Shown: positions 38,848-38,956 of the stretch, one piece after another | Position numbering within the stretch: position 1 is the first letter of the stretch | Layout: each line of letters opens with the position of its first letter | DNA from: Escherichia coli | Lineage (GTDB): Bacteria; Pseudomonadota; Gammaproteobacteria; Enterobacterales; Enterobacteriaceae | Assembly: GCF_003334305.1 (NCBI RefSeq) | Contig: NZ_QOWS01000022.1 | Length of the DNA stretch: 64,000 bases | Direction: 5' to 3' (one strand) | The notes under the pieces: model-generated | Seen by the model: the letters and a program-made list of their open reading frames with translations, nothing else | Database searches by the model: none | Told to the model about the DNA's origin: nothing | Translations under genes and position numbers: made by a program

Positions 38848-38855
38848 TCCGCCCC

Positions 38856-38871
38856 CTGGGTGTATATACAG
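38856..38871. promoter_or_regulatory. LexA box 1 upstream of lexA
   Basis: + strand ctgggtgtatatacag = CTG-N10-CAG, 9 bp upstream of the lexA ATG. Confidence 0.9.
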
Positions 38872-38876
38872 TTATG

Positions 38877-38892
38877 CTGTGAGTATATACAG
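38877..38892. promoter_or_regulatory. LexA box 2 upstream of lexA
   Basis: + strand ctgtgagtatatacag = CTG-N10-CAG, tandem to box 1 with a 5-bp gap. Confidence 0.9.
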
Positions 38893-38956
38893 CAAAAGGC
38901 GATTTTGGAACCATAAACTGCACAATAAACCAGAGATTTATCGAAATCTGGAAGGG

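Follow-up and report, generated by a model that had tools for sequence, protein, structure and literature searches.

The lexA operator forms the feedback core of the SOS response, and work on it goes back to 1981, when operators I and II of the E. coli K-12 lexA promoter were reportedly described by Brent and Ptashne and by Little et al. Each of the two operators adds to repression, which is lost when both are inactivated (PMC7440846), a result obtained on the same sequence as the one considered here and one that bears out an earlier note on this DNA, which had recognised in it the classic autoregulatory arrangement of lexA. In vitro, LexA represses the lexA promoter with an IC50 of ~150 nM, with gel-shift results also reported (PMC9210283), and UV induction of lexA has been reported as well (PMC3009722). 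The element analysed here is the same one in another E. coli strain, as both operator 20-mers are identical to those of the K-12 lexA promoter (Kozuch et al., 2020, PMC7440846; Lewis et al., 2021, PMC9210283) and the 5-bp spacer, the -10 hexamer in the upstream operator, the downstream operator's Dcm site and the gene order dgkA-lexA-dinF are likewise shared, leaving no difference between the two. It is the textbook lexA double operator, already known, and we are all but certain of the overall reading, namely an E. coli lexA promoter with two LexA operators that serves negative autoregulation and from which dinF is expressed by read-through.

The window, that is the whole 64,000-nucleotide stretch of DNA that was analysed, carries the following genes at this locus.

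36516-36731, minus strand: yjbJ
36841-38166, minus strand: coding sequence of dinF as given by RefSeq (PGAP) and NF007690, 441 residues, a MATE transporter
38239-38847, minus strand: coding sequence of lexA, 202 residues, from the TIGR00498 equivalog and the RefSeq (PGAP) annotation of 100% identical DNA
38957-39325, minus strand: dgkA
39436-41919, plus strand: plsB

Positions 36700-39500 match several complete E. coli genomes at 100% identity, and the segment is present as a single copy in all 5426 genomes compared. In one of the 5426 the dgkA-lexA-dinF locus is found on a record labelled as a plasmid, which is probably a mislabelled replicon. The RefSeq annotation of an identical record lists plsB, dgkA, lexA, dinF, yjbJ and zur, and the minus-strand order dgkA-lexA-dinF-yjbJ is that of the E. 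coli chromosome. LexA scored 289.5 bits against the NCBIfam equivalog TIGR00498 (cutoff 110.95), and a direct count in its translation found the self-cleavage apparatus intact, with Ala84-Gly85, Ser119 and Lys156 all present. In the case of DinF, residues 1-440 of the 441-residue form correspond to positions 1-440 of the 441 in NCBIfam profile NF007690, with a score of 909 bits.

The two LexA boxes occupy the segment directly upstream of lexA.

38877-38892, minus strand: distal LexA box, the published operator II; its 20-mer, 38875-38894, is TGCTGTATATACTCACAGCA and contains the -10 hexamer
38856-38871, minus strand: proximal LexA box, the published operator I; its 20-mer, 38854-38873, is AACTGTATATACACCCAGGG and covers ~+4 to +19

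The earlier note had reported two CTG-N10-CAG boxes, 5 bp apart and directly upstream of lexA, and had their positions exactly right: the plus-strand letters are CTGGGTGTATATACAG for the proximal and CTGTGAGTATATACAG for the distal box, the spacer comprises positions 38872-38876, and the minus-strand reading frame that follows is lexA itself. The note had also proposed a comparison with the published lexA operator, and here both boxes proved identical, their minus-strand 20-mers agreeing letter for letter with the distal box in the lexA entry of Table 4 and the proximal box in the lexA,dinF entry of Table 7 of PMC3009722. For a LexA matrix scan, the other check it had proposed, we derived a symmetrised weight matrix from 17 non-lexA SOS boxes of PMC3009722 Table 4, the lexA sites being left out, and applied it to the ~64,000 positions of the window. 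Neither box fails: the distal box ranked first (19.5 bits) and the proximal box second (18.4 bits), both inside the range of the training sites (12.6-28.9 bits), and sites scoring like either box are expected by chance at ~0.01 per 64 kb. The third-ranked site (21968-21987, TACTGTATATTCATTCAGGT, 16.8 bits) has the same letters as the uvrA box printed in Table 7 of PMC3009722 and, as the known uvrA/ssb SOS box, provides an internal positive control for the scan, with the fourth-ranked site, at 9.9 bits, already within the null range. The earlier note would have taken failure of either box at a matrix threshold as decisive; this is unsafe, since a consensus-based FIMO scan of Salmonella missed the known second lexA box there (PMC8072944), so that failure in such a scan would not disprove function.

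Two simpler searches were less informative. The bare CTG-N10-CAG pattern was found at 28 places in the window, where dinucleotide shuffles lead one to expect 12.7 (0 of 100 shuffles reached 28), an excess that probably arises from codon and tetranucleotide bias (CTGG/CCAG), and as only three of the 28 score like LexA boxes we rejected the pattern as a criterion and regard it as a weak screen. A search for the perfect 20-bp palindrome with at most three mismatches gave zero matches, the test being too strict because the two boxes differ from that sequence at 5 and 6 positions. What defines both boxes as SOS boxes at the level of sequence is that each is an imperfect palindrome of 16-20 bp with the form CTGT-N8-ACAG and scores like known sites.

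The boxes are interlaced with the promoter elements of lexA.

38905-38910, minus strand: candidate -35 hexamer TTCCAA, a 3/6 match to TTGACA, 17 nt upstream of the -10
38882-38887, minus strand: -10 hexamer TATACT, read from the sequence, inside the distal box and invariant across species
38874-38875, minus strand: lexA transcription start, in the 5-bp spacer between the boxes, back-calculated from the numbering of PMC9210283
38855-38859: Dcm site CCAGG (extended CCCAGGG), inside the proximal box

An automatic promoter scan missed the lexA promoter because it required at least four of six matches in the -35 hexamer and that of lexA has three. TTCCAA is a putative -35 that we assigned by eye and by conservation, its positions T1, T2 and A6 being the conserved ones in the alignment of upstream regions. 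Operator II was previously noted to overlap conserved RNA polymerase binding sequences (PMC7440846). The start of transcription follows from the Dcm target cytosines reported at +17, +45 and -116 relative to the lexA start (PMC9210283), the three CCWGG sites (38855-38859, 38827-38831 and 38987-38991) all being compatible with 38874 as the start, or with 38875 should the numbering refer to the outer C. At the proximal box's Dcm site, methylation is specific to stationary phase and LexA hinders Dcm, with lexA expression unaffected (PMC9210283). The two boxes, which lie 21 bp apart start to start, or about two helical turns, overlap the core promoter and the transcription start, and with the -10 inside the distal box and the start in the spacer, a dimer on the distal box would cover the -10 and a dimer on the proximal box the region from ~+4 to +19.

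This geometry is consistent with an autoregulation module in which a LexA with intact self-cleavage residues is encoded immediately downstream of two separate operators that are conserved in relatives. One LexA dimer is expected to occupy the distal box and a second the proximal box, and together they would exclude RNA polymerase, so that LexA would limit its own synthesis. Upon DNA damage, the RecA filament would stimulate self-cleavage of LexA at Ala84-Gly85, leaving the operators empty and raising lexA transcription, and the ongoing synthesis of LexA would then allow the SOS regulon to be shut off quickly once the damage signal ends.

To examine the conservation of the double operator we sampled one genome per species, using LexA residues 40-58, written as a degenerate DNA pattern, to locate lexA independently of the operator. 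The pattern yielded 120 loci, mostly from Enterobacterales, with some from Pasteurellaceae, Glaciecola and Idiomarina and one from a Burkholderiales metagenome-assembled genome; 96 were usable, and a box was counted if it lay no more than 160 nt from the start codon and scored 10 bits or more. Exactly two boxes were present upstream of lexA in 89 of the 96 species, three in one and a single box in six. In the 90 species with at least two boxes the start-to-start spacing of the pair was 21 bp for 66 species, 20 bp for 9 and 19 bp for 15, and nearly all of the sampled Enterobacterales and of the loci from Glaciecola and Idiomarina carry two boxes at 19-21 bp. The shorter spacings follow lineage, with 19-bp pairs found in Pantoea, Tatumella, Rosenbergiella and Mixta and 20-bp pairs in Erwinia and Erwinia-like species; this loss of one or two bases from the spacer alters the helical phasing of the boxes. 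Two Photorhabdus species, Arsenophonus nasoniae and a Burkholderiales metagenome-assembled genome are among the six in which only one box reached the 10-bit threshold.

Column identity to E. coli, measured in an alignment of the 96 distinct upstream regions, reached 99% in the distal box, 86% in the proximal box, 87% in the Shine-Dalgarno stretch and 75% in the -35 hexamer, compared with 41-59% in the remaining intergenic DNA (41-50% in the neighbouring unconstrained, flanking DNA). Among the 5426 E. coli genomes, 5333 carry the 68-nt promoter/operator stretch at 99% identity or more. The lexA doublet is under strong constraint by these conservation data. However, no measurable difference was found when the natural double operator was compared with a single operator matched to it (PMC7440846), and the benefit of having two boxes is accordingly unexplained despite their conservation. 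The doublet may have a function that has gone unrecognised, for example in stopping read-through from dgkA or in the binding of a second factor.

Downstream of lexA, the junction with dinF contains three features that bear on how the second gene is expressed.

38218-38220, minus strand: in-frame ATG opening a 459-residue reading frame, inside the hairpin stem and probably not the start of dinF
38191-38228, minus strand: terminator-like hairpin with a 12-bp GC-rich stem and the 4-nt loop GCCA, followed by UUUGUUUUUC
38013 (K-12 position 4257949), minus strand: peak of a Rho-dependent termination region ~150 nt into dinF (PMC7815308, supplementary file 2), a position mapped on the assumption of no indels relative to K-12

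The earlier note had dinF following lexA by 18 nt. There is indeed an in-frame ATG at 38220, from which the frame is open in the three E. coli sequences examined, and an older K-12 annotation presumably placed the dinF start at the corresponding ATG. Translation of a 459-residue DinF from this codon seems improbable to us, however, as E. albertii and the other genera examined either lack an ATG at that place or have it out of frame, their first conserved in-frame ATG matching Met19 of the long reading frame in the alignment, and as the codon sits within the stem of the hairpin. Since 38166 is where dinF begins in the RefSeq (PGAP) annotation and where the NCBIfam DinF equivalog starts to align, we place the likely start of dinF there, at the conserved codon, with a predicted gap of 72 nt between lexA and dinF.

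The two genes are adjacent and on the same strand, and the earlier note had suggested that they are co-transcribed. This part of its claim is upheld by the literature: dinF is listed as having no box of its own and as co-transcribed with lexA (PMC6590174, Table 1), one continuous UV-induced transcript has been reported (PMC3009722, Fig. 4), and RNA polymerase occupies the region across lexA-dinF (PMC3739934, Fig. 3). The supporting argument from an 18-nt gap does not stand, since it depends on the non-conserved start codon, and the read-through is attenuated. In direct RNA sequencing (PMC7815308), coverage upstream and downstream of the Rho-dependent region in early dinF was 322 and 54 without bicyclomycin and 288 and 295 with it, and the region has a Rho score of 6.1 (p = 5.6e-32). 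In uninduced cells dinF RNA is thus about six-fold below lexA RNA, with approximately one sixth of transcripts continuing and the drop being Rho-dependent (PMC7815308). Co-transcription of lexA and dinF is real but attenuated, and it is partial in uninduced cells.

We consider it very improbable that lexA and dinF are instead separate units, divided by the hairpin and its U-tract acting as an efficient intrinsic terminator and with dinF served by a promoter of its own. The hairpin does have the canonical shape of such a terminator, a GC-rich stem-loop directly before a U-tract, with a folding energy of -23.1 kcal/mol for the hairpin alone and -29.9 kcal/mol (z = -3.0) for its region, and its position is conserved: a hairpin of -12 kcal/mol or lower is present in the lexA-dinF gap of 39 of 40 species. 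The stem sequences in these species are unrelated, 28 of the 40 gaps fold significantly better than shuffles, and a clear T-run follows the hairpin in only 16 of the 39. Against two separate units stand the continuous UV-induced transcript and the boxless, co-transcribed status of dinF cited above, together with two scans of the minus strand at 38166-38600: a crude promoter scan found no sigma-70-like site there, though it also missed the real lexA promoter, and the matrix scan found no LexA box. The equal coverage under Rho inhibition (295 versus 288) further argues that, under those conditions, the hairpin does not act in vivo as a strong intrinsic terminator. In addition, the Term-seq tables of PMC7815308 give no 3' end at the hairpin, and none on the K-12 plus strand between 4257185 and 4259238, a weak point as the tables may be thresholded or truncated. 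Our literature search found no paper that joins lexA, dinF and an intrinsic terminator.

Our preferred reading of the junction is that dinF, with no promoter or box of its own, would be expressed via read-through from the lexA promoter and that the two genes would be only loosely coupled, by an untranslated gap with a hairpin and then by the Rho-dependent region early in dinF. Because the hairpin is kept in nearly all of the sampled species despite sequence turnover between genera, and because a Rho stop follows it in E. coli, it is conceivable, if rather doubtful, that the junction is a conserved conditional attenuator and not a passive spacer. If so, the hairpin and the Rho stop could keep DinF from following LexA output in unstressed cells, with dinF being reached only when the promoter fires hard.

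A further site upstream of the two boxes also has the form of a box.

38918-38933, minus strand: third CTG-N10-CAG, CTGGTTTATTGTGCAG, not a functional box

We give practically no credence to a lexA promoter with three operators, in which this upstream site would aid repression, for it fits the minimal pattern and is most likely the putative operator III mentioned in the literature (PMC7440846), but its score of 5.5 bits (rank 13) is at chance level with 6.3 such sites expected per window, its column identity of 49% is no better than that of the flanking DNA, and mutation of operator III left repression unchanged, its authors concluding that there are only two operators (PMC7440846).

Some other features of the window were recorded in passing. 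Strong Term-seq 3' ends at 39157 and 39217 on the plus strand, antisense to dgkA (K-12 4256805 and 4256745 on the minus strand, scores 88708 and 45283; PMC7815308), belong to a plus-strand transcript that runs through dgkA towards plsB. We found no consensus promoter for this transcript on the plus strand at 38558-39266, and a divergent plus-strand promoter within the palindromic operators, considered as its source, likewise gave no consensus match. Within lexA, the same dataset lists for two conditions a 3' end at 38777 on the minus strand (K-12 4257185), 70 nt into the coding sequence, which the authors' score does not class as Rho-sensitive (PMC7815308). Rfam matches, counted above the gathering score, included no family in or near the lexA region; those elsewhere in the window were as follows.

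10568-10638 and 50706-50776, minus strand: naRNA4, two copies
17876-18016, plus strand: sraL sRNA
60107-60256, plus strand: STnc430
62151-62347, plus strand: lysine riboswitch

Rediscovery of the lexA operator adds nothing new to its biology, and the value of the exercise is one of calibration, a regulatory element having been located to the base from sequence, with the uvrA/ssb box recovered in the same scan. The corrections are minor, namely the likely dinF start at 38166, the predicted 72-nt gap with its hairpin and the attenuation of co-transcription. What interest remains attaches to the junction, with its conserved hairpin and Rho attenuator, and to the double operator, whose selective value is unexplained. 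Both can be set beside known systems. The hairpin terminator of recA-recX passes only a minority of transcripts. As in lexA-dinF, the downstream gene of recA-recX has no box and owes its expression to read-through from a promoter under LexA control (PMC6590174, Table 1), whereas the published drop in lexA-dinF is Rho-dependent, with its peak within dinF (PMC7815308). With respect to the operators, recN, which has three boxes, and the colicin genes, which have two that overlap, resemble lexA in binding more than one LexA dimer per promoter (PMC7440846, PMC2994835); the boxes of lexA differ from those of the colicin genes in being separate, 21 bp start to start, and recN, unlike lexA, is not autoregulatory.
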